A model generated the notes under the pieces. The model was given only the letters and a program-made list of their open reading frames with translations, had not been told where the DNA came from and did no database searches. The position numbers and the translations under genes were made by a program. From contig JAZQZB010000033.1 of assembly GCA_045633825.1 (NCBI GenBank), forward strand, positions 1 through 61,208: a stretch of DNA of 61,208 nt, in the 5' to 3' direction. Position 1 is the first letter of the stretch; every line of letters begins with the position of its first letter. Source of the stretch: Alphaproteobacteria bacterium (GTDB lineage Bacteria > Pseudomonadota > Alphaproteobacteria > RF32 > CAG-239). Positions 337 to 38,826 of this stretch are shown here, one piece after another.

Positions 337-412
337 TGGTGCCGACAGAGAGACTCGAACTCCCGACCCACTGATTACAAATCAGTAGCTCTACCAACTG
401 AGCTATGTCGGC
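337..412 (-). tRNA. tRNA-Thr (anticodon UGU), CCA encoded
   Basis: 76-nt cloverleaf read on the minus strand: gccgacatagctcag...tggtagagc. Anticodon stem actga/tcagt with loop tttgtaa. T-arm ggttcgagtct. 3' end is acca. Confidence 0.85.
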
Positions 413-24386: not shown

Positions 24387-24511
24387 AAAAACTTATCTAA
24401 TGGTCTACTAATACAGAATTAGCAAATATTTTGTTCGGTCACGTACTTTTTTGTACGCTCACTCACAAAATTTTTTAATTCTTATTATTAGACTCATTAT
24501 CTAAGTTTTTT
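24387..24511. repeat. Palindromic nested-hairpin element, copy A1
   Basis: About 35-nt imperfect inverted arms aaaaacttatctaatggtctactaat... / ...attagactcattatctaagttttt. Central cacgtac tttttt gtacg hairpin. Confidence 0.7.
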
Positions 24512-24514
24512 GGG

Positions 24515-24642
24515 AAAAACTCGTATAAAAGTTTTCTAGAGCCATTTTCTGCGGGCGAGAAAAATTCATGTAGGTTTATCTACGACTCAAAATTTTTCTC
24601 GCCTTGAAATTAACTCTATAAATTCTTTTATCCGAGTTTTTT
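24515..24642. repeat. Palindromic nested-hairpin element, copy A2 (near-identical to 35104-35231)
   Basis: About 50-nt arms aaaaactcgtataaaagttttctagagcc...gcgggcgagaaaaatt / aatttttctcgcc...ctctataaattcttttatccgagttttt. Confidence 0.8.
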
Positions 24643-24664
24643 AGGGATAAATGGTTGTATAAAG

Positions 24665-30590: not shown

Positions 30591-31838
30591 TTAGAACTTG
30601 TAGTTTACAGACAAACCCCAAATTTTAACCGAGTTTTCGTAGTCAGCATATATTCTGCGCTTTCCTGCATCATCAAGATTAACAGTAGCTTCTTTAGCTT
30701 GAATATATGTAAAGCCCATATCAAATGTCAAATTTTCGTTGTATTTGTATTCAAGACCTGTTGAATACCAAATGCGTCTTGAATCCGGAACGCGAGGGGT
30801 ACGATAATCAACTTTTACAGCTGCATCATCATAAGCCAAACCTAAACGAAGTTTCCATTGGTTGTCAATTTGATAAGAAGCACCGATAGCATAAAAGTTG
30901 GCATCTTCCCAATTTTCAGGAGTATAGCTTAACAAATAACTTCCATTAGGGTTTGTTCTTTCAGCGCCGTAAATATCGATGCTATCGAAAGAATTCCAGA
31001 ATACACGTTGGTATTCAGCCATAACAGCCCATTTGTCGTTGATTTCATGATAAGTACCGACAGATAACATAGCCGGAGTATCTATACGAGCAGTAATATC
31101 TTGGTTGAAGGCGGCACTCATAGGAGGTAAGATAGAACCGATGTTAGACTTAATGTCGCCTTTTAATTTGTGATTGATTTCACTACGATAGCTTACACCG
31201 AAACGAGTTTTTTCATTAAATTCATATAAGGCACTTAATTGATAACCGATATCAACACTTTCGCCTTCGATGGCAACACCTGCATTACCGGCTGCAGCAG
31301 TAGAAGTTAATCTGGCTTTGAAATATTGAATTGGTAAGCCGACACCAAGTGATAATTTATCGGTAGCTTTGTAAGCTAACATCGGAGTTGTGGTTACAGC
31401 AGTAACTTTTGATGTTGCACCATGATCAGCACCGGCCCAACGGTCATCATATTTAGTAATCATACCAAAAGGTATGTTAACACCTAAACCGAAAGTATAT
31501 TTGTCATTTAATTGTTGTGAATAAGACATATTCGGAGCAACGGCAGAGTGAACGATGTTGTGAACATCAGATTCATCACCCGAAACACCGTCAATATTGT
31601 GAGCCGAAGCTTCCGGAGCAATATATGTACCGCCGATATTAAATTGTTTACCTTTTTGACGGGTAAGACCGGCAGCATTAAAATATGCATAAGAGTTGTT
31701 TTCTGCACCGGCAGTAGCACCGGCAAAAGCATTACCCAAAGCTGCACCTGATTGTTCACGAAGATGGAATCCGGCAGCATTAGCATTTGCAATAGCCATA
31801 ACAGAAGCTAAAGCAGTAAATGTAAGAAGTTTTTTCAT
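30591..31838 (-). CDS. fadL: FadL/OmpP1 family outer-membrane long-chain fatty acid channel, paralog 1
   Basis: Signal peptide MKKLLTFTALASVMAIANANA. GFHLREQS hatch N-terminus. Beta-barrel repeats. C-terminal YKF. Confidence 0.85.
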   Translation of the reverse strand: MKKLLTFTALASVMAIANANAAGFHLREQSGAALGNAFAGATAGAENNSYAYFNAAGLTRQKGKQFNIGGTYIAPEASAHNIDGVSGDESDVHNIVHSAVAPNMSYSQQLNDKYTFGLGVNIPFGMITKYDDRWAGADHGATSKVTAVTTTPMLAYKATDKLSLGVGLPIQYFKARLTSTAAAGNAGVAIEGESVDIGYQLSALYEFNEKTRFGVSYRSEINHKLKGDIKSNIGSILPPMSAAFNQDITARIDTPAMLSVGTYHEINDKWAVMAEYQRVFWNSFDSIDIYGAERTNPNGSYLLSYTPENWEDANFYAIGASYQIDNQWKLRLGLAYDDAAVKVDYRTPRVPDSRRIWYSTGLEYKYNENLTFDMGFTYIQAKEATVNLDDAGKRRIYADYENSVKIWGLSVNYKF

Positions 31839-31846
31839 AGTACAAA

Positions 31847-31877
31847 CGTCCTTATTATTAAACACACGATAAGGACG
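31847..31877 (-). promoter_or_regulatory. 5'-UTR hairpin that includes the fadL-1 Shine-Dalgarno
   Basis: Minus strand shows a 9-bp stem cgtccttat/ataaggacg. The 3' arm carries aagga 9 nt before the ATG. Confidence 0.35.
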
Positions 31878-31901: not shown

Positions 31902-31917
31902 AATCAATCGATTGATT
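31902..31917. promoter_or_regulatory. Perfect 16-bp palindrome AATCAATCGATTGATT upstream of fadL-1 (candidate TetR operator)
   Basis: Seen directly. 64-79 nt upstream of the fadL-1 ATG. The same core occurs at 32712-32723 and 37541-37552. Confidence 0.55.
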
Positions 31918-31929
31918 TTTTGTTGATAT

Positions 31930-32568
31930 TTATTTTTTTAAGTAGTCTAAAATGAAGTCAATTTGAGAGCTTGTATATCGCTGTAGCTCAAGTTGAGTCT
32001 TGTCATCATAGTCTTCCCATTCCATAAGTTTGCAAATTGATTCTTTGCGAGAAGCAAAAACAAAAAGCTGTGAAAAAAGCGGAAAAATATAAAAATAGCA
32101 ATTTTTTATATCAATGGTTTTGTTGCTTGCCAAATGGAGCAGGTTAGACATACGGTCATGAACCGGACGAATCAGTTCATCATATAAAATGTTGAATTCG
32201 TCTGTCGGGCTTGAGTACTCACTTAAGAAAACTTTTTTGACATTTGGTGATAGATCTTTGGAGCACAAAATGTTCAAAAAATATTCCGACATTTCTTTTA
32301 AGAGGATGCGAGCTTCTTTAGAATCTTGTTTTTCGATAACACTTGTGTAACGAGAGTTAAGCTCGGCCGTCATTTCGTTGATAGTGTCGACAATCTTTTT
32401 TAAGGCTGCGGTATAAATGCCTTTTTTGCCGCCAAAATAGTATAAGATTGAAGATATGTTGATGTCTGCTTTTGCTGCAATATCTCTGGTTGATGCGCCG
32501 GAAAAGCCGTTTTTGGCAAATTCTTCAAACGCAGACCATAGCAGCTTGCTTTTTGAATCTGCAGGCAT
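31930..32568 (-). CDS. TetR/AcrR family transcriptional regulator
   Basis: 212 aa. N-terminal HTH FAKNGFSGASTRDIAAKADINISSILYYFGGKKGIY. Confidence 0.85.
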   Translation of the reverse strand: MPADSKSKLLWSAFEEFAKNGFSGASTRDIAAKADINISSILYYFGGKKGIYTAALKKIVDTINEMTAELNSRYTSVIEKQDSKEARILLKEMSEYFLNILCSKDLSPNVKKVFLSEYSSPTDEFNILYDELIRPVHDRMSNLLHLASNKTIDIKNCYFYIFPLFSQLFVFASRKESICKLMEWEDYDDKTQLELQRYTSSQIDFILDYLKK

Positions 32569-32711
32569 TGTAAGGGGTACTCCTTTTAAATATATGTTAG
32601 TCTGGACTTTATAAGATGTTTATAATAGATATTTATTTTTTTCAATCATGTTTTATCCACTTTTGTGCAAAACTAAAAAAATAATTAAAAAACAGCATGT
32701 TACATCTTAAA

Positions 32712-32723
32712 TCAATCGATTGA
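32712..32723. promoter_or_regulatory. Palindrome TCAATCGATTGA in the divergent tetR/aas intergenic region (candidate operator)
   Basis: 12-bp perfect palindrome. 86 nt upstream of the aas GTG and 144 nt upstream of the tetR ATG. Confidence 0.5.
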
Positions 32724-32808
32724 ATTAGTGGTATAGTTTTTTTTTTCTTTACAGTTGCTGATAAAGTATTTAAAAAAGAGTTAACTTGAACTATTGGAGT
32801 AATATATC

Positions 32809-34977
32809 GTGAGAAATTTTGTACGTTTTTGTCTGCGTGTTATTTTTAATACTTTTAAGGTCAGATGTAATATTCAATTTGATGAAAACAAACTTCCGAC
32901 AAAGGCTGTTTATATTTCAAACCATGTGTCTTTTTTAGACCCGATTATGCTGTTTGCCTTTTTGCCGGGTAATCCTGTTTTTGCATTAAATGGTCATTTA
33001 TACCGTAATAAATGGATTAGAATGATTATGCAAACTGCTGATGTGATGCCGTTTAATCCGATTGAACCGTCTGATTTGAAAGAGTTGATAGCTAAAATTG
33101 ACAGCGGCAGATGTTGTGTGATGTTTGCAGAAGGTCGTATGACCGAAAATGGCGGTTTAATGAAGATTTATGAAGCTCCGGGATTGGCTGCTGATAAATC
33201 AGGTGCTCCGATTGTTCCTGTGTGGATTGATGGTCCGCAATTCGGTTATTTTTCAAAAACTAAAGGTAAATTGCCTCATCGTCCGTTGCCAAGAATTACT
33301 ATTACAGTCAGAAAACCTGTTAAGTTTAAGTTGAAAGATGAATTGCGTCGTCAACGTGATCACATTAGTAACGAAGTTTATATGATTATGCGTGATATGT
33401 GTTTTGATGCATCTAATAACGGTAATATATCTTTGTTCGGTATGTTGATGAAAGTAGCGAAAATTAACTCAAAACAAGGTTGGTTCCGTCGTGTGAAATT
33501 TTTTGAGGATATTAATCGTGAACCACAATCTTATAAAGATATTGTTATTAAATCTTTTGTTCTTGGTCGTTTCTTTAAGAAAATGACACAGCCGGGTGAA
33601 CATGTTGCTTTGTTGTTGCCAAATGCTTTGGCTACCGTTTGCTCATTCTTCGGTTTGTCAGCTTATGAACGTGTGCCGGTTATGTTAAACTTTTCGGTCG
33701 GCGCTAAAAATATGGTTTCGATGTGTAATACTGCTCAAGTTAAGATGGTTATTACATCGCATGCATTTATTCGTAATGCTAAAATGGAAGATGTTATTAC
33801 GGCAATTCGTGACGCCGGTTATAAAATCTTTTATTTGGAAGAATTGCGTAAGCATTTAACATTGAAAGATAAAATAGATGCTTATGTCAGATATAAAGTT
33901 AAACGTGTGCCACATCCTGAAGGCGGTAATAAAAAAGCAGTTATTTTGTTTACTTCCGGTTCGGAAGGTGCTCCGAAAGCCGTTGTTTTGAGCCACTCAA
34001 ATATTATTTCGAATGTGGATCAGTTGAATTGTATCGAAACATTGAATAACAAAGATACTTTACTTAATGCTTTACCGATGTTTCATAGTTTCGGTTTGAC
34101 GGTTGGTACTTTGTTCCCAATGTTTAACGGATGTAAATTGTTTTTGTATCCGTCTCCGTTACACTATCGTATTATTGCAGAGCTTTCTTATGAAATCGGT
34201 GCTACGGCTTTGCTTGGTACAGATACATTTTTCAGAGGTTATGCAAAAATTGCTCACCCGATGGATTTCCACTCTTTGCGTATTATGTATGGTGGTGCCG
34301 AAGCTATTAAGCCGGATACTCGTAATCTTTGGGGTGAAAGATTGGGAATCGCTGTTAAAGAAGCTTATGGTTCGACCGAATGTTCTCCCGTGGTTACTGC
34401 AAATAACCGAATCTTTAACCGTTTTGGTTCTATCGGTAAGTTGTTGCCGAAAATTCAACATAAAATTGTTCCGGTTGACGGAATCAAAAACGGTGGTGAA
34501 TTATGGGTTAAAGGTCCGAATGTGATGTTGGGATATATTCATCCGGATAAGCCGGGCGTGTTAGAGCCTTTGAAAGACGGTTGGTATCATACCGGTGATG
34601 TGGTAGAGATTGATGAAATCGGCTTTGTATATATTCGCGACAGAATTAAACGTTTTGCAAAAGTCGGTGGTGAAATGGTTTCATTAAATGCCGTTCATGA
34701 AACAGTTGTTAAAGCTTTTGAGGCCGATGGTGCTGAATGGGCATACGGAATCGTTGCTGTTCCTCATGACACCAAAGGTGAGCAGATTGTTTTGGCTACC
34801 AACAATAAAAAAGCAACAAATGATCGTTTGCACGCTTATATCAAACAAAATGCTTTGCCGGAACTTTATCTTCCTAGGGTTATTCTTTATCGTGATTCTT
34901 TGCCTGTGTTTGCGACAGGTAAGGCAGATAATGTGACACTTAAGAAAGAGGTTATGGATGAACTGGGTATTGCTTAA
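32809..34977 (+). CDS. aas: Bifunctional 2-acylglycerophosphoethanolamine acyltransferase / acyl-ACP synthetase (Aas-like)
   Basis: 722 aa. GTG start with SD ggag. N-terminal HxxxxD acyltransferase motif NHVSFLD. C-terminal AMP-binding FTSGSEGAPKAV. Confidence 0.85.
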   Translation: MRNFVRFCLRVIFNTFKVRCNIQFDENKLPTKAVYISNHVSFLDPIMLFAFLPGNPVFALNGHLYRNKWIRMIMQTADVMPFNPIEPSDLKELIAKIDSGRCCVMFAEGRMTENGGLMKIYEAPGLAADKSGAPIVPVWIDGPQFGYFSKTKGKLPHRPLPRITITVRKPVKFKLKDELRRQRDHISNEVYMIMRDMCFDASNNGNISLFGMLMKVAKINSKQGWFRRVKFFEDINREPQSYKDIVIKSFVLGRFFKKMTQPGEHVALLLPNALATVCSFFGLSAYERVPVMLNFSVGAKNMVSMCNTAQVKMVITSHAFIRNAKMEDVITAIRDAGYKIFYLEELRKHLTLKDKIDAYVRYKVKRVPHPEGGNKKAVILFTSGSEGAPKAVVLSHSNIISNVDQLNCIETLNNKDTLLNALPMFHSFGLTVGTLFPMFNGCKLFLYPSPLHYRIIAELSYEIGATALLGTDTFFRGYAKIAHPMDFHSLRIMYGGAEAIKPDTRNLWGERLGIAVKEAYGSTECSPVVTANNRIFNRFGSIGKLLPKIQHKIVPVDGIKNGGELWVKGPNVMLGYIHPDKPGVLEPLKDGWYHTGDVVEIDEIGFVYIRDRIKRFAKVGGEMVSLNAVHETVVKAFEADGAEWAYGIVAVPHDTKGEQIVLATNNKKATNDRLHAYIKQNALPELYLPRVILYRDSLPVFATGKADNVTLKKEVMDELGIA

Positions 34978-35101
34978 AACTTGTATAACAGCTCATCTAG
35001 AGCAATTTTACGGGGTAGTTAAAAATTCACGTAGCTATTTGTACGCTAAAATTTTTAACACCCCTAGAAATTACTCTATCTGAACTATTCTCCAAGTTTT
35101 T
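34976..35101. repeat. Palindromic nested-hairpin element, copy B1 (overlaps the aas stop codon)
   Basis: Arms aaaacttgtataacagctcatctagagcaattttacggggtagttaaaaatt / aatttttaacacccctagaaattactctatctgaactattctccaagtttt. Confidence 0.7.
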
Positions 35102-35103
35102 AG

Positions 35104-35231
35104 AAAAAACTCGTATAAAAGTTTTCTAGAGCCATTTTTTGCGGGCGAGAAAAATTCATGTACTATCAGTGTACACTAAAATTTTTCTCGCCTTAAAAAT
35201 AACTCTATAAATTCTTTTCTCCGAGTTTTTT
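35104..35231. repeat. Palindromic nested-hairpin element, copy B2 (near-identical to 24515-24642 except the loop)
   Basis: Direct comparison. The arms differ at only a few positions. Loop is catgtactatcagtgtacactaa versus catgtaggtttatctacgactcaa. Confidence 0.8.
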
Positions 35232-35338
35232 ATTTTGACTTTATCTAAACTATTCTTCGACCTTAATGGAGAATGTAGGAGCCTTCTTTTTTTGCTTCTA
35301 TTAACCTCATTATTTTAAGTTTTTTATTTTGACTTTAT
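35232..35338. repeat. Degenerate third element bounded by a perfect 21-bp direct repeat
   Basis: agttttttattttgactttat occurs at 35224-35244 and 35318-35338. The intervening sequence shares atctaaactattct with the B1 arm and forms hairpin attcttc/ggagaat. Confidence 0.5.
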
Positions 35339-35565
35339 TTATCGGTTATAAGTATTTCGAATCTTTTGTTGTAAAAGGAAAGTAATCTTTTGAATTTTGT
35401 AAAAGAAACTTTGTTTCCTTTTTCAATTTCGTTTATTGAATTTAGTGATAAATCGCAGTGTAGGGCAACATCAGCAGTTGTTAATCCTTTTTCTATGCGA
35501 ATTTTTTTTAAATTTTGCCCCAATATTTTTAATACTTCGGCACGAAATGAATCTGTCATTTTCAT
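35335..35565 (-). CDS. XRE-family helix-turn-helix transcriptional regulator (76 aa)
   Basis: LKKIRIEKGLTTADVALHCDLSLNSINEIEKGNK is a typical HTH_3 pattern. SD gggag upstream. Confidence 0.75.
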   Translation of the reverse strand: MKMTDSFRAEVLKILGQNLKKIRIEKGLTTADVALHCDLSLNSINEIEKGNKVSFTKFKRLLSFYNKRFEILITDK

Positions 35566-35586
35566 AAACTCCCGTTTGATTTTGTT

Positions 35587-35800
35587 AAAACAAAACCGCC
35601 TTTTTAATCAAAAAAGGCGGGGAGTTCGAAACTGCAAAAGAACAGCCTGAGTTATTCGAGCATAAGCCTTATATCCCCAGCTCCCCATCAGGAGATGTTC
35701 TTATTTCTTTTGGGAGTTTCGACACTCCGCAAAGGCAACTTACCTTTGCGAAATTTAAGCTAATAGATTTTAAGTAATTTGGCAAGAATATTTTTAAATC
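35587..35800 (-). ncRNA. Tandem unit 1: promoter-like boxes, about 150 nt of GC-enriched structured sequence, minus-strand terminator
   Basis: Minus strand reads -35 TTGCCA (35780-35785), 17 nt, -10 TAGCTT (35757-35762). Terminator ccgcctttttt/aaaaaggcgg is followed by ttttgtttt at 35587-35620. Internal hairpins present. No conserved ORF. Confidence 0.45.
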
Positions 35801-36014
35801 AAAAACAAACCCGCCTTTTTAATCAAAAAAGGCGGGGAGTTCGAAACTGCACAAGAACAGCCTGAGTTATTCGAGCATAAGCCTTATATCCTCAGCTCCC
35901 CATCAGGAGATGTTCTTATTATTTTGTGGGAGTTTCGAAGCTCCGCAAAGGCAACTCACCCTTGCGAAATTTAAGCTAATAGATTTTAAGTAATTTGGCA
36001 AGAATATTTTTTAT
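35801..36014 (-). ncRNA. Tandem unit 2 (a few substitutions and small indels relative to unit 1)
   Basis: -35 TTGCCA (35996-36001), 17 nt, -10 TAGCTT (35973-35978). Same terminator at 35801-35834. Confidence 0.45.
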
Positions 36015-36046
36015 CTTTGAAAATCAAGACTAAAAAAAGAGGAATA

Positions 36047-37012
36047 TTATTTTTTGATGGTGTTGGTTGTTAACTTTGTCAATAAATCAGGATTTACTTC
36101 TGATGTTTTAATAACCGGTTGTTCAGGAGTTTTTATACCACGAAGTTCAGCTATTCTATCGGGATTAATTTTAGCGTTCTGTTCAGTTTTTGTCTCCGGA
36201 TATCTTTCGTCAAGAAATTTAGCTCGGGATTTTAGTAAAGAGTTATCTTTTGAGTTTAGATATTCCTTAAAAGCTGTTATTGAGTTTTCATAACCGGCAT
36301 TTGTGGTCATTTTAGCACCGATACTATCAGCAAAGAATTCTTCTTTATCTTTTAATCCGCCGGTATATCCTAAAGGTCGAGAAGAAACATCTATAAAATG
36401 TCCAAATTCATGTGCTATAAGCATGGGAAGGATATTTTTGTTGTTTTCATCAAAACAGCCTTTGTTTATGTTTATTATTACATTTTTCCCATTGGATTTT
36501 GTATATTCATCATCCTTAAATTTTCCGTCAATAGATTTATCATCTAATATGTTTATTGTAATATTTTTATCTTTGAGTGCTGTATCTAAAAATTCATTCT
36601 TTTTGCGAAGTGTATCTAAAATATTTTGGGTATACTTCAGCTCATCAGGAGCGTCAATAGTATTGTTTTTCATCCATATAAATGGTGAGTGTTCTCGATC
36701 GACGATTTTGCTGGTGGTTGTTTCTATGGGATGAAGATTATGTTCTTTACTCAACTTGTTAAAATGTTCGTCTAAATTAAATCCGTCAGCTTCTATTTTT
36801 CTATTTTGTTCAATTTGCTTTTGCGATGCTGTTTGTGTGCAAGACATCAGATTTTGAATAGGGGCAGGGTTTTTGTTTGTTGACATTTGTTCAAGAGCAT
36901 AGATTTTGGCTTTCTCAAACATTTGATGATGTTCGCCACTAATATTAACGTAATTATTTTGTTTCAATTCTTCTAAGGTTTTTAGAATTTCATCAAATTG
37001 AATATTTGTCAT
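36047..37012 (-). CDS. HExxH zinc-metallopeptidase-like protein (ImmA/IrrE M78-like motif spacing), 321 aa
   Basis: LIAHEFGHFID, then about 20 aa later EEFFADSIGAKM (compare HExxH...E..A..FA). No signal peptide. Long unrecognised N-terminal half. Confidence 0.5.
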   Translation of the reverse strand: MTNIQFDEILKTLEELKQNNYVNISGEHHQMFEKAKIYALEQMSTNKNPAPIQNLMSCTQTASQKQIEQNRKIEADGFNLDEHFNKLSKEHNLHPIETTTSKIVDREHSPFIWMKNNTIDAPDELKYTQNILDTLRKKNEFLDTALKDKNITINILDDKSIDGKFKDDEYTKSNGKNVIININKGCFDENNKNILPMLIAHEFGHFIDVSSRPLGYTGGLKDKEEFFADSIGAKMTTNAGYENSITAFKEYLNSKDNSLLKSRAKFLDERYPETKTEQNAKINPDRIAELRGIKTPEQPVIKTSEVNPDLLTKLTTNTIKK

Positions 37013-37332: not shown

Positions 37333-37540
37333 TTAAATCACCCCTTTTCATATAAGTTTTAAGGTTAATCCAATAAATCATTTGGTTTGTAACATTTTGT
37401 ATCATAAAAATCAAGTATTTTTTTAAGTCTATTTTGTGAAAAAATAGGTGTTTTGTTATAAAAAATTTAGTTGTTGTTAATTTTTTTAACGGCTTAACAT
37501 ATTGAAAAATAACAAAAAATAAAAATAATTTAAAAATAAT

Positions 37541-37552
37541 TCAATCGATTGA
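37541..37552. promoter_or_regulatory. Palindrome TCAATCGATTGA upstream of fadL-2 (candidate TetR operator)
   Basis: 63-74 nt upstream of the fadL-2 ATG. The extended match TCAATCGATTGATTGA is shared with fadL-1. Confidence 0.5.
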
Positions 37553-37614
37553 TTGATTTTTTATTTTTTTGTGTTATAACGGCTTTCGTAGTTAAACAAA
37601 AAGGATTTTTATTT

Positions 37615-38826
37615 ATGAAAAAACTTCTTACATTTACAGCTTTGGCTTCTATTATGGCCGTTGCTAATGCCAATGCTGCCGGATTCCATCTTCGTGAACA
37701 ATCTGCCGCAGCTATGGGTAATGCTTTTGCCGGTGCTACTGCCGGTGCAGAAAACAACTCTTATGCTTATTTTAACGCTGCCGGTCTTACTCGCCAAAAA
37801 GGCAAACAATTTAATATCGGCGGTACATATATTGCTCCGGAAGCATCCGCCGGCAATATTGACGGTGTTTCGGGTGATGAATCTGATGTACACAATATCG
37901 TACATTCTGCCGTTGCTCCGAATATGTCTTATTCACAACAATTAAATGACAAATATACATTCGGTTTGAGTGTTAATGTACCTTTCGGTATGATTACAAA
38001 ATATGATGACCGTTGGGCCGGTGCTGCTCATGGTGCAACATCAAAAGTTACTGCCGTAACCACAACTCCGATGATTGCTTATAAAGCTACCGATAAATTA
38101 TCTCTCGGTGCCGGTTTGCCGATCCAATATTTCAAAGCAAGATTAACTTCTAATAACGGTGGTGCTGATGTTGCTTTGCAAGGTGATACCGTTGATGTCG
38201 GTTATCAATTAAGTGCCTTATATGAATTTAATGAAAAAAATCGTTTCGGTGTAAGTTATCGTAGTGAAATCAACCACAAATTAAAAGGCGAAATTGAGTC
38301 CAAAGCTTTGGCTCCTCATCCGACAATGGGACCTGTATATAACCAAGATATTACTGCTCGCATAGATACTCCGGCTATGTTATCTGTCGGTGCTTATCAT
38401 GAAATCAACGACAAATGGGCTGTTATGGCTGAATATCAACGCGTATTTTGGAATTCTTTTGATTCTATTGATATTTACGGTCAAGAAGTCGGCGGTATGA
38501 TTGATACAACTCCTGAAAACTGGGAAGATGCAGATTTCTATGCTGTCGGTGCTTCTTATCAAATTGATGATCAATGGAAACTTCGTTTAGGTTTGGCTTA
38601 TGACGAATCTGCCGTAAAAGTTGATTATCGTACACCTCGTATTCCGGATTCAAGACGCATTTGGTATTCAACGGGTCTTGAGTACAAATACAACGAAAAT
38701 TTGACATTTGATATGGGCTTTACATACATTCAAGCTAAAGAAGCTCATGTTGAGTTAGACGGTATTTCAGCCGATTATGAAAACTCGGTTAAAATGTGGG
38801 GCTTGTCTTTGAATTACAAGTTCTAA
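37615..38826 (+). CDS. fadL: FadL/OmpP1 family outer-membrane long-chain fatty acid channel, paralog 2
   Basis: Signal peptide MKKLLTFTALASIMAVANANA. GFHLREQS. Overall collinear with paralog 1. Confidence 0.85.
   Translation: MKKLLTFTALASIMAVANANAAGFHLREQSAAAMGNAFAGATAGAENNSYAYFNAAGLTRQKGKQFNIGGTYIAPEASAGNIDGVSGDESDVHNIVHSAVAPNMSYSQQLNDKYTFGLSVNVPFGMITKYDDRWAGAAHGATSKVTAVTTTPMIAYKATDKLSLGAGLPIQYFKARLTSNNGGADVALQGDTVDVGYQLSALYEFNEKNRFGVSYRSEINHKLKGEIESKALAPHPTMGPVYNQDITARIDTPAMLSVGAYHEINDKWAVMAEYQRVFWNSFDSIDIYGQEVGGMIDTTPENWEDADFYAVGASYQIDDQWKLRLGLAYDESAVKVDYRTPRIPDSRRIWYSTGLEYKYNENLTFDMGFTYIQAKEAHVELDGISADYENSVKMWGLSLNYKF

Follow-up and report, generated by a model that had tools for sequence, protein, structure and literature searches.

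The contig JAZQZB010000033.1 of a CAG-239 alphaproteobacterium (assembly GCA_045633825.1) contains, within the 61,208-nt stretch analysed here (the window, numbered along its forward strand), a small gene for a regulator of the XRE type that is directly preceded by two tandem copies of an RNA-like unit. All of these features are read on the minus strand, where the order is rpsU with its terminator, a gene coding for a protein with an HExxH motif, unit 2, unit 1 and xre (Table 1). A description made from the sequence alone, hereafter the sequence-only reading, had taken the units for autonomous promoter-to-terminator RNA genes that part an XRE/ImmA-like protein pair. Comparison with the homologous loci L001-L029 leads to a different delimitation: the real unit is a cassette of ~0.5 kb made up of promoter, RNA, a first terminator (T1), xre and a second terminator (T2), and the HExxH gene is an unrelated neighbour rather than a partner of xre.

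The two direct repeats are indeed arranged in tandem as units of ~215 bp, with 94-96% identity and a spacing of 215/216 nt. They were recovered by a direct-repeat search (TRF did not list the 215-bp period), and both nhmmer and a covariance model of the RNA (R1) find exactly these two copies in the window. Each unit carries the hexamers TTGCCA and TAGCTT 17 nt apart, as had been read from the letters. The -10 hexamer matches TATAAT at three of six positions and is weak by E. coli standards, which is why a consensus promoter scan misses the unit promoters. Across the three genomic contexts in which the cassette occurs, the promoter hexamers are TTGCCA/TAGCTT, TTGATA/TAACTT and TTGCGA/TATTTT, with CTTG at -35 common to all. 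The hexamers differ, but the spacing of 17 nt and the distance of 7 nt to the first hairpin (P1) are constant throughout, which speaks for a conserved start of transcription immediately ahead of P1. At the other end, the terminator scan calls the intrinsic terminators of both units on the minus strand only, in agreement with the sequence-only reading, and the GC enrichment it described amounts to ~0.40 in the units against 0.27-0.34 around them. This anatomy supports the units as autonomous minus-strand RNA genes.

Table 1. Features of the rpsU-xre region of the window, in minus-strand order
Feature	Position	Strand	Basis and remarks
rpsU	37332-37126	-	with own terminator
HExxH (HEFGH) zincin-like protein, 321 aa	36047..37012	-	own promoter-like site and Shine-Dalgarno (SD) sequence; outside the RNA-xre cassette
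Unit 2 (upstream direct repeat)	36016-35802	-	repeat search and sequence
-35 TTGCCA, unit 2	35996..36001	-	sequence; 17 nt to TAGCTT
-10 TAGCTT, unit 2	35973..35978	-	sequence; ends 7 nt before P1, same in every homologue
RNA of unit 2 including terminator	35802..35966	-	allele B: GGAGCUUCGAAAC, CACAAAAUAAU, CUUGUG; 214 bits to R1
Terminator, unit 2	stem 35836-35810, U-tract 35809-35802	-	terminator scan
Unit 1 (xre-proximal direct repeat)	35801-35587	-	repeat search and sequence
-35 TTGCCA, unit 1	35780..35785	-	sequence
-10 TAGCTT, unit 1	35757..35762	-	sequence
RNA of unit 1	35587..35750	-	allele A; leads directly into xre; 211 bits to R1
P2 5' strand	35716..35728	-	GGAGUGUCGAAAC; fold and consensus structure
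Anti-SD element A3' (CUCCCA)	35716-35711	-	follows P2 5' strand; invariant
Core	35641..35676	-	GGAUAUAAGGCUUAUGCUCGAAUAACUCAGGCUGUU; conserved columns of alignment A3 and accessibility profile
P2 3' strand	35621..35632	-	GUUUCGAACUCC; abuts terminator; CUCCCC end is anti-SD element B3'
Terminator T1, unit 1	stem-loop 35596..35620, U-tract 35595-35587	-	terminator scan; stem invariant, loop variable
Spacer and SD	35569..35586	-	AACAAAAUCAAAC and SD GGGAG (35573-35569); conserved; no promoter within
xre	35335..35559	-	74 aa; Cro/C1-type helix-turn-helix domain only; Pfam HTH_3 6.7e-8

Between promoter and terminator, the predicted RNA is highly structured. The minimum-energy fold reaches -63.7 kcal/mol for unit 1 (z -5.5 against shuffles) and -65.8 kcal/mol for unit 2 (z -6.1), and in both units it includes the 12-bp long-range helix that had been proposed by eye. 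In the coordinates of alignment A3, which consists of 15 distinct RNA copies, the unit 1 RNA is composed of i) the 9-bp hairpin P1, which is followed by ~110 nt of further structure, ii) the long-range helix P2, iii) P3, the hairpin P4 and P5, the last with large invariant internal loops, and iv) the terminator. The consensus structure comprises 49 pairs, and 99.4% of the alignment cells are paired, compared to 38-59% when the partners are slid. Nine further pair types occur in the stems, each through a one-sided change after which the pair is still standard on the minus-strand RNA; seven of them are G-U wobbles, for which the complementary strand would have A-C mismatches. At the apex of P1, the pair is U-G, C-G or U-A, depending on the homologue. 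Differences between the copies cluster in the loops of P1, P4 and the terminator, the stems of which stay constant. P2 is the weakest structural element; between alleles A and B (UG versus CU) its bulge moves and the 12 bp are kept. The core of 36 nt, mostly single-stranded in the predicted accessibility profile, is identical in 14 of the 15 homologues, the exception being a single G->A change in L028 (alignment column 121).

The RNA is conserved well beyond the source strain. Between contexts it is about 85-95% identical, as opposed to 42-67% for the promoter region and 31-49% for the downstream DNA. Since the xre genes compared across the same contexts are saturated at synonymous sites (dS 1.0-2.4, dN/dS 0.05-0.19), the RNA evolves about as slowly as nonsynonymous sites. 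At the gathering threshold, Rfam finds only three tRNAs in the whole window, in line with the expectation that the units match no known RNA family, and ARAGORN reports no tRNA or tmRNA in the unit region. A permissive Rfam search (E<=10) gave 12 matches, all below threshold, and none to an alpha-r or other alphaproteobacterial sRNA (small RNA) family. The best Rfam alignment for both units is to sRNA-Xcc1 (RF02221), with which they share a similar outer stem and two inner hairpins. We treated these two hits as chance: they score 25.4 and 24.8 bits against a gathering cut-off of 53, with E ~0.06 for the 801-nt search, and are not independent of each other. With R1, the window and 13 loci contain the known copies and no extra or degenerate ones; hits of <=26 bits for the most part fall on other terminators or mirror the units on the opposite strand. 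On these sequence comparisons we regard the RNA as a strongly conserved and undescribed structured family of ~160 nt, specific to this lineage.

Several other identities were considered for the RNA and rejected. A hammerhead-like CUGAUG/CGAAAC arrangement, seen by eye, falls into a variable segment in the loop of P4. A 6S-like architecture was dismissed because the 5' and 3' ends are unpaired, and there is no 6S match. As for a coding role, the only open reading frame (ORF) in the RNA has 26 codons in unit 1 and is stopped at codon 4 in unit 2, as first noted from the sequence; the same A/G difference interrupts it in 7 of 15 homologues. A 117-aa ORF in L023 (1701-2054) and L024 (1378-1731), where a 1-nt difference in the terminator loop brings the frame AUG GGG AGC UGG... 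into phase with xre, is a frame accident that reads through the terminator and that an ORF caller would report.

The gene behind the RNA codes for a minimal regulator. The sequence-only reading had correctly recognised an XRE-type gene, which Pfam confirms as HTH_3; its start has to be corrected from 35565 (76 aa) to the second ATG, because the first one is absent in L022. We found 24 homologues, 23 of them at least 76% identical and one (P0034) a chimera at 55%, and dN/dS in the homologue comparisons is 0.05-0.30. The padloc matches of the protein are to generic helix-turn-helix (HTH) families only, and exact-sequence look-ups of both window proteins, XRE and HExxH, gave no match. P0034 (L021, 202-438) is family-like over its first ~29 residues, the remainder including the recognition helix being a different HTH_3; it sits behind an intact RNA unit on a contig of only 961 bp and could be a genuine chimera as well as an artefact of assembly. 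The region around the xre stop overlaps a shorter repeat, AGTTTAGATAAAGTCAAAATAAAAAACT (35224-35247, 35318-35341). Upstream, the SD of xre lies 22 nt behind the last terminator and 13 nt behind its U-tract, and the promoter scan finds no promoter-like site between T1 and this SD. The spacer varies at a single base, immediately in front of GGGAG, and is otherwise the same in every xre-proximal copy of the three contexts. The placement of the RNA as a 5'-UTR on the same strand, with no intervening promoter, holds in every context. Downstream of xre, the other contexts show a clear terminator, T2.

The linkage of RNA and xre is equally constant. In every recovered locus whose contig extends upstream, the RNA lies directly in front of xre on the same strand; the contig of L029 begins 45 nt before xre, so that its upstream side is unseen. 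The neighbourhoods themselves are unrelated: rpsU...aas in the window, L001-4 and L023-28, ftsJ...fliE in L018-20 and L022, and bipA...pfkB in L010-15. A 25-mer scan with the RNA core through 185,579 genomes (one per species) returned two metagenome-assembled genomes (MAGs), sheep-colon RGIG5458 and SIG43, with one copy each and both adjoining xre, and a scan of JGI metagenomes with the XRE profile added one further locus only. There is one cassette per genome, and it was found only in animal-gut Alphaproteobacteria MAGs. In GCA_017501665.1, the rpsU-HExxH-aas site is empty and the cassette resides between ftsJ and fliE instead. RGIG5458 is also the source of L007, whose rpsU-HExxH-aas site is empty; the cassette has therefore changed its place while the synteny (uvrA-hyp-fadL-rpsU-HExxH-aas-tetR-fadL across loci) was kept.

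In contrast to xre, the HExxH gene occurs independently of the RNA. In L005-L009, the HExxH proteins are 48-51% identical to that of the window and the spacer between HExxH and aas holds neither RNA nor xre; in L023-L028, RNA and xre follow directly after rpsU with no HExxH gene; xre without HExxH is found throughout L010-L029, and only the window and L001-L004 have both. Thus, that HExxH homologues never neighbour XRE genes is true of the more distant ones, while the closest do adjoin xre. The gene looks like an insertion or deletion between rpsU and the next gene, with TTGATTTT on both sides, and would represent an independent insertion between rpsU and the cassette. The assignment of the protein to the M78/ImmA type did not stand either. 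Pfam yields no family (best Peptidase_M91 at E 0.056, and no Peptidase_M78, PF06114, at E<=1), padloc, PHROG and NCBIfam give no match, and a profile search of the PDB finds no sequence relative. A confident AlphaFold model (pLDDT 84) shows an N-terminal helical domain; its fold matches, all weak, include 3c37 (a putative Zn-dependent peptidase), BepA, BlaR1, SprT and selecase, and the 50 listed out of 96 matches with E<=10 include no entry named ImmA or IrrE. We take 3c37 to be a peptidase of the M48 type. Ten remote relatives match only Peptidase_M48 or another zincin family, and these weakly, so that the protein points weakly to the M48-type zincins. Its family is tiny: ten proteins were found in a collection of 5.8 billion sequences, and among 1.84 billion representatives a search at E<=0.001 gave 52 clusters.

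These data also bear on the idea that XRE and the HExxH protease belong to a split ImmR/ImmA-like, toxin-antitoxin (TA) or defence module with the RNA units as third component. In the window as well as in L001-L004, xre and the HExxH gene lie close together on one strand, and HEFGH followed ~20 residues on by EEFFAD presumably resembles the M78 motif superficially. Nevertheless, we hold such a module to be extremely improbable. Of the features by which an ImmR/ImmA pair would be recognised, i.e. an M78 domain, adjacency across genomes and location in a prophage, an integrative and conjugative element or a defence island, none was found: M78 and padloc matches are lacking, fold and remote relatives point to M48-like zincins, and the co-occurrence data contradict a pair whose members come and go independently. 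The flanking genes are of the housekeeping type (rpsU, fadL, uvrA, aas, tetR), neither the 25-mer RNA core nor the XRE profile gave a close viral relative in IMG/VR, and a blastn search of plasmids gave 0 matches.

The tandem arrangement, too, is not a constant property of the locus. L001 has two units, L002 and L003 have one, and the unit of L002 is a recombinant of both L001 units. In the window, the upstream unit is of allele B and the proximal one of allele A, and elsewhere, in different contigs and contexts, each allele is found as a single copy. In L024, which has one unit, the rpsU terminator joins that unit through the same sequence that links the two units of the window, GTTTGTTTTTGATTTAAAAATATTCTTGCC, and the terminators of rpsU and the units have GGCGGTTTTGTTTT in common, with near-identical tails. 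Duplication may have come about by unequal recombination between units or between the rpsU and unit terminator tails (GGCGGTTTTGTTTT), by which the promoter would be included in the duplicated segment. By this sequence comparison, the tandem state is a strain-level copy-number polymorphism and not a fixed design.

The anatomy of the units, their conservation, their linkage to xre and their independence of HExxH are shown by the comparisons above. As an explanation we favour, with moderate confidence, an RNA of dual role, which would act as a terminated sRNA and as a gating leader of xre and whose copy number varies between one and two by unequal recombination. Each unit would be a structured RNA gene of ~160 nt with its own promoter of the sigma-70 type and its own intrinsic terminator. 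Since xre is without a promoter of its own, it would be transcribed only by read-through of T1, and the RNA would therefore serve both as a terminated sRNA, the major product, and as the leader at the 5' end of the xre message. Once T1 is read through, the CUCCC-containing leader segments AAACUCCC or GAACUCCCC would pair with the ribosome-binding site (RBS) GGGAGUUU. Because P2 uses the same segments as this anti-SD pairing, the two would compete, with P2 formation freeing the SD and anti-SD/SD pairing blocking it. In such a circuit, T1 would determine how much RNA is made relative to xre mRNA, and leader folding would gate the translation of XRE, which is probably a low-level, autoregulatory protein; the anti-SD motifs or the near-invariant single-stranded core may also allow the free RNA to act in trans. 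The sequences concerned are well conserved: AAACUCCC, the 3' half of the P2 5' segment, is invariant in 15/15 sequences, GAACUCCCC forms the 3' end of P2, and the SD region GGGAGUUU is invariant. Folds of the read-through RNA predict a pairing probability of the SD of 0.5-1.0 in 11 loci, and in ten of them most or all of this pairing is with the two leader anti-SD segments. A lineage without the second anti-SD segment (L018-L020) is predicted to let the first, AAACUCCC, take over the pairing with the SD.

A number of points weigh against the dual-role RNA. Transcription, the 3' end and read-through are all deduced from signals in the DNA, as are the sequestration of the SD and any trans activity. 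The SD pairing is a thermodynamic prediction, and in L022 the predicted partner lies elsewhere. Regarding the structure, none of the 49 pairs shows double-sided covariation, and shuffling such similar sequences yields no informative control, so that the structure is supported and not statistically proven; the opposite strand folds well, too (z -5.6). P2 is disturbed by a G->U change (U-C mismatch) in L001a, L002 and L004, and 7 nt of its 3' strand are deleted in L018-L020, on three independent contigs. In these contigs, which stem from different samples, CUCCCC is lost with the deletion (at about 2925-2940 in L018) and the remaining RNA as well as xre are intact, which makes the lineage a natural mutant bearing on the role of P2. 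Furthermore, the upstream tandem unit could serve as leader only if two terminators are read through, and the trans role may therefore be the main one. Finally, the window with its 54 genes offers no detectable mRNA target: for the core and for the CUCCCA region, the duplex energies with the 54 translation-initiation regions were no better than those of shuffled queries.

A serious rival, which we consider rather unlikely, is a purely trans-acting sRNA at a sibling-sRNA locus like that of AbcR1/AbcR2, whose CUCCCA/CUCCCC anti-SD motifs or core repress mRNAs elsewhere in the genome, with XRE as a dedicated transcription factor and incidental co-transcription. This would fit with the unit's own promoter and strong terminator, with tandem copies that would raise the sRNA dosage by each having a promoter, with the near-invariant and mostly unpaired core, and with an invariant CUCCCA that is exactly the M1 motif of AbcR (PMC5461406). 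In the predicted fold, however, CUCCCA is partly buried in P2, no alphaproteobacterial sRNA family of Rfam is hit even at E<=10, and no target in the window stands out. A purely trans-acting sRNA also leaves the promoterless xre and the near-invariant spacer between T1 and SD unexplained. A second rival is a leader that senses a ligand or factor in the manner of a riboswitch, in which P2-P5 binds a metabolite, an ion or a protein (possibly XRE itself) and binding chooses between termination at T1 with an occluded SD and read-through with translation. The layout would suit such an attenuator, as promoter, closed multi-stem domain, conserved internal loops and a terminator abutting the closing helix are followed by a regulator ORF, the SD is complementary to strands of the closing helix, and conservation is near the nonsynonymous rate. 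Still, we judge it improbable: a mutually exclusive anti-terminator is not evident, covariation is absent, one lineage persists with its closing helix half deleted, and behind the duplicated upstream units there is no ORF. The distribution is very narrow as well (2/185,579 species genomes), while known riboswitch classes are usually more widely distributed.

A signal at the DNA level deserves mention next to these RNA-based explanations. The near-palindromes centred on TTCGAA, two per unit, lie where the sequence-only reading had placed them, and these and/or the spacer motif TTTTGTT-TT-AACAAAA could be XRE operators, the helix being a by-product of their half-sites. GGAGnnTCGAAACTCC is a palindrome at 14/16 positions, invariant outside its centre and found nowhere else in the window. 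There is no conserved palindrome in the three divergent promoter regions, and any auto-operator must therefore lie in the conserved transcribed part. Moreover, stems that do not covary in spite of saturated dS would fit a double constraint on DNA and RNA. We regard operators as the whole explanation as very improbable, given that they leave unexplained the conservation of all 160 nt, the G-U-type substitutions in P1, P3, P4 and P5 and the conserved terminator geometry; the 3' site is a poorer, shifted palindrome that is deleted in L018-20, and L021 has a different recognition-helix region behind the same RNA. Operators are also compatible with the dual-role RNA and do not exclude it.

Concerning known systems, the closest cases in architecture appear to be Anti-Q/PrgX, AbcR1/2, type III TA loci and attenuator or SD-sequestering leaders. 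By the feature tests made here on the sequences, full membership is established in none of them. In the Anti-Q/PrgX system of the Enterococcus plasmid pCF10, a single promoter gives rise to both the RNA and the repressor (PMC3181467). The likeness, an sRNA from the 5' end of an XRE-type repressor operon, is here one of anatomy only. The target of Anti-Q, which is a countertranscript, is an overlapping operon of convergent orientation, whereas the cassette has neither a convergent or overlapping gene nor a conserved opposite-strand promoter over the RNA, and its flanks differ between contexts; it is also chromosomal and not plasmid-borne, and there is no sequence or Rfam relation. We take the HTH of PrgX to be of the XRE type, and mD/TraA of pAD1 to be a similar case. 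The AbcR1/AbcR2 RNAs (alpha-r15) of Rhizobiales are in tandem with separate promoters and terminators, beside a regulator gene, and contain a CUCCCA anti-SD motif (PMC5461406). Our units resemble them in their alphaproteobacterial origin, tandem order, adjacent regulator and invariant CUCCCA hexamer. The AbcR regulator, however, is LysR-type, lies upstream and is not co-transcribed, unlike xre; CUCCCA is single-stranded in AbcR and partly helical here, with only CC clearly unpaired by prediction; and the AbcR/alpha-r15 model is not among the 12 Rfam matches at E<=10. The AbcR RNAs are presumably also shorter and fold differently from our units.

Type III TA loci of the ToxIN kind likewise have a promoter, a repeated RNA, an intrinsic terminator and an ORF in this order, with an RNA-to-protein ratio that is set by the terminator; the ToxI-type repeats are ~36 nt long, share one promoter and are cut by the toxin. 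The cassette shares the intrinsic terminator between RNA and ORF, but its units are of 215 bp, each with its own promoter and terminator and in one or two copies, and the ORF is an HTH_3-only protein and not an endoribonuclease like ToxN, AbiQ or CptN. Attenuating or SD-sequestering leaders such as riboswitches, protein-binding leaders and the c4 RNA of phage P1, whose target is the transcript downstream of it, have a structured leader, a terminator and an anti-SD/SD pairing directly upstream of the ORF. The expression platform of such a leader is present here as an intrinsic terminator and, by prediction, SD sequestration; it differs in that the leader is duplicated together with its promoter, in the lack of two-sided changes (0/49 pairs) and in having no Rfam match.

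Given its changing location, the cassette could even be a self-contained relocating element, in which RNA and XRE antagonise each other and T1 fixes their ratio, and hence a new RNA-protein pair for regulation or addiction, although we give this possibility low credence. In such a pair, XRE might be titrated by the RNA or have its synthesis blocked by it, and might in turn repress the promoter of the RNA or act on it; T1 may fix the RNA:XRE ratio by analogy with type III TA loci, and the element would perhaps move between sites by riding on flanking dispersed repeats, having no recombinase of its own. A dispersed intergenic repeat of ~135 nt, REP/MITE-like and with internal inverted repeats, is present at 24507-24643, 34968-35103 and 35097-35232 of the window, at 2545-2760 of L018 and in the spacers of L005 and L007, where it fills the "empty" site; depending on the context, it flanks the cassette on one side or the other. 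Dispersed intergenic repeats of this kind could mediate gain, loss or relocation of the cassette.

Besides the cassette, the window contains other repeated elements. Two highly similar, inverted paralogues of the FadL/Toluene_X outer-membrane family (30591-31865, minus strand; 37549-38826, plus strand) bracket tetR-aas-xre-RNA-HExxH-rpsU and are a potential substrate for inversion. A palindrome, AATCAATCGATTGATT, is found at 31902-31938, 32710-32746 and 37539-37575, beside both fadL paralogues and in the spacer between the divergent tetR (CecR-like) and aas genes; from this placement, it is likely the operator of the TetR-family regulator, with a regulon for fatty-acid uptake and activation. 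A further tandem repeat (1-128 and 207-334, spacing 206, 94% identical) adjoins a tRNA-Thr gene (337-412, minus strand). Its copies, the first of which is cut by the window edge, are G+C-rich by eye, and each ends in AAAAAATCCCCC-loop-GGGGGATTTTTT, a hairpin resembling a bidirectional terminator. Rfam at threshold gives 0 matches for positions 1-334, and the repeats may be another duplicated sRNA-like gene of this genome.

No long-standing question is opened by the cassette, as structured RNAs beside HTH-XRE genes have already been reported to be frequent: they form a frequent category in microbiome surveys (PMC8040213). What is new here is the RNA family and its combination with a regulator in one cassette. 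If confirmed, it would add a structured-RNA family outside Rfam that is confined to uncultured animal-gut Alphaproteobacteria, and it would be a compact case in which one promoter yields a terminated sRNA and, by read-through, a minimal XRE protein whose RBS is complementary to the RNA. Naturally occurring variants, with one versus two units, a lost P2 strand and a chimeric XRE, provide ready-made genetics for this system.

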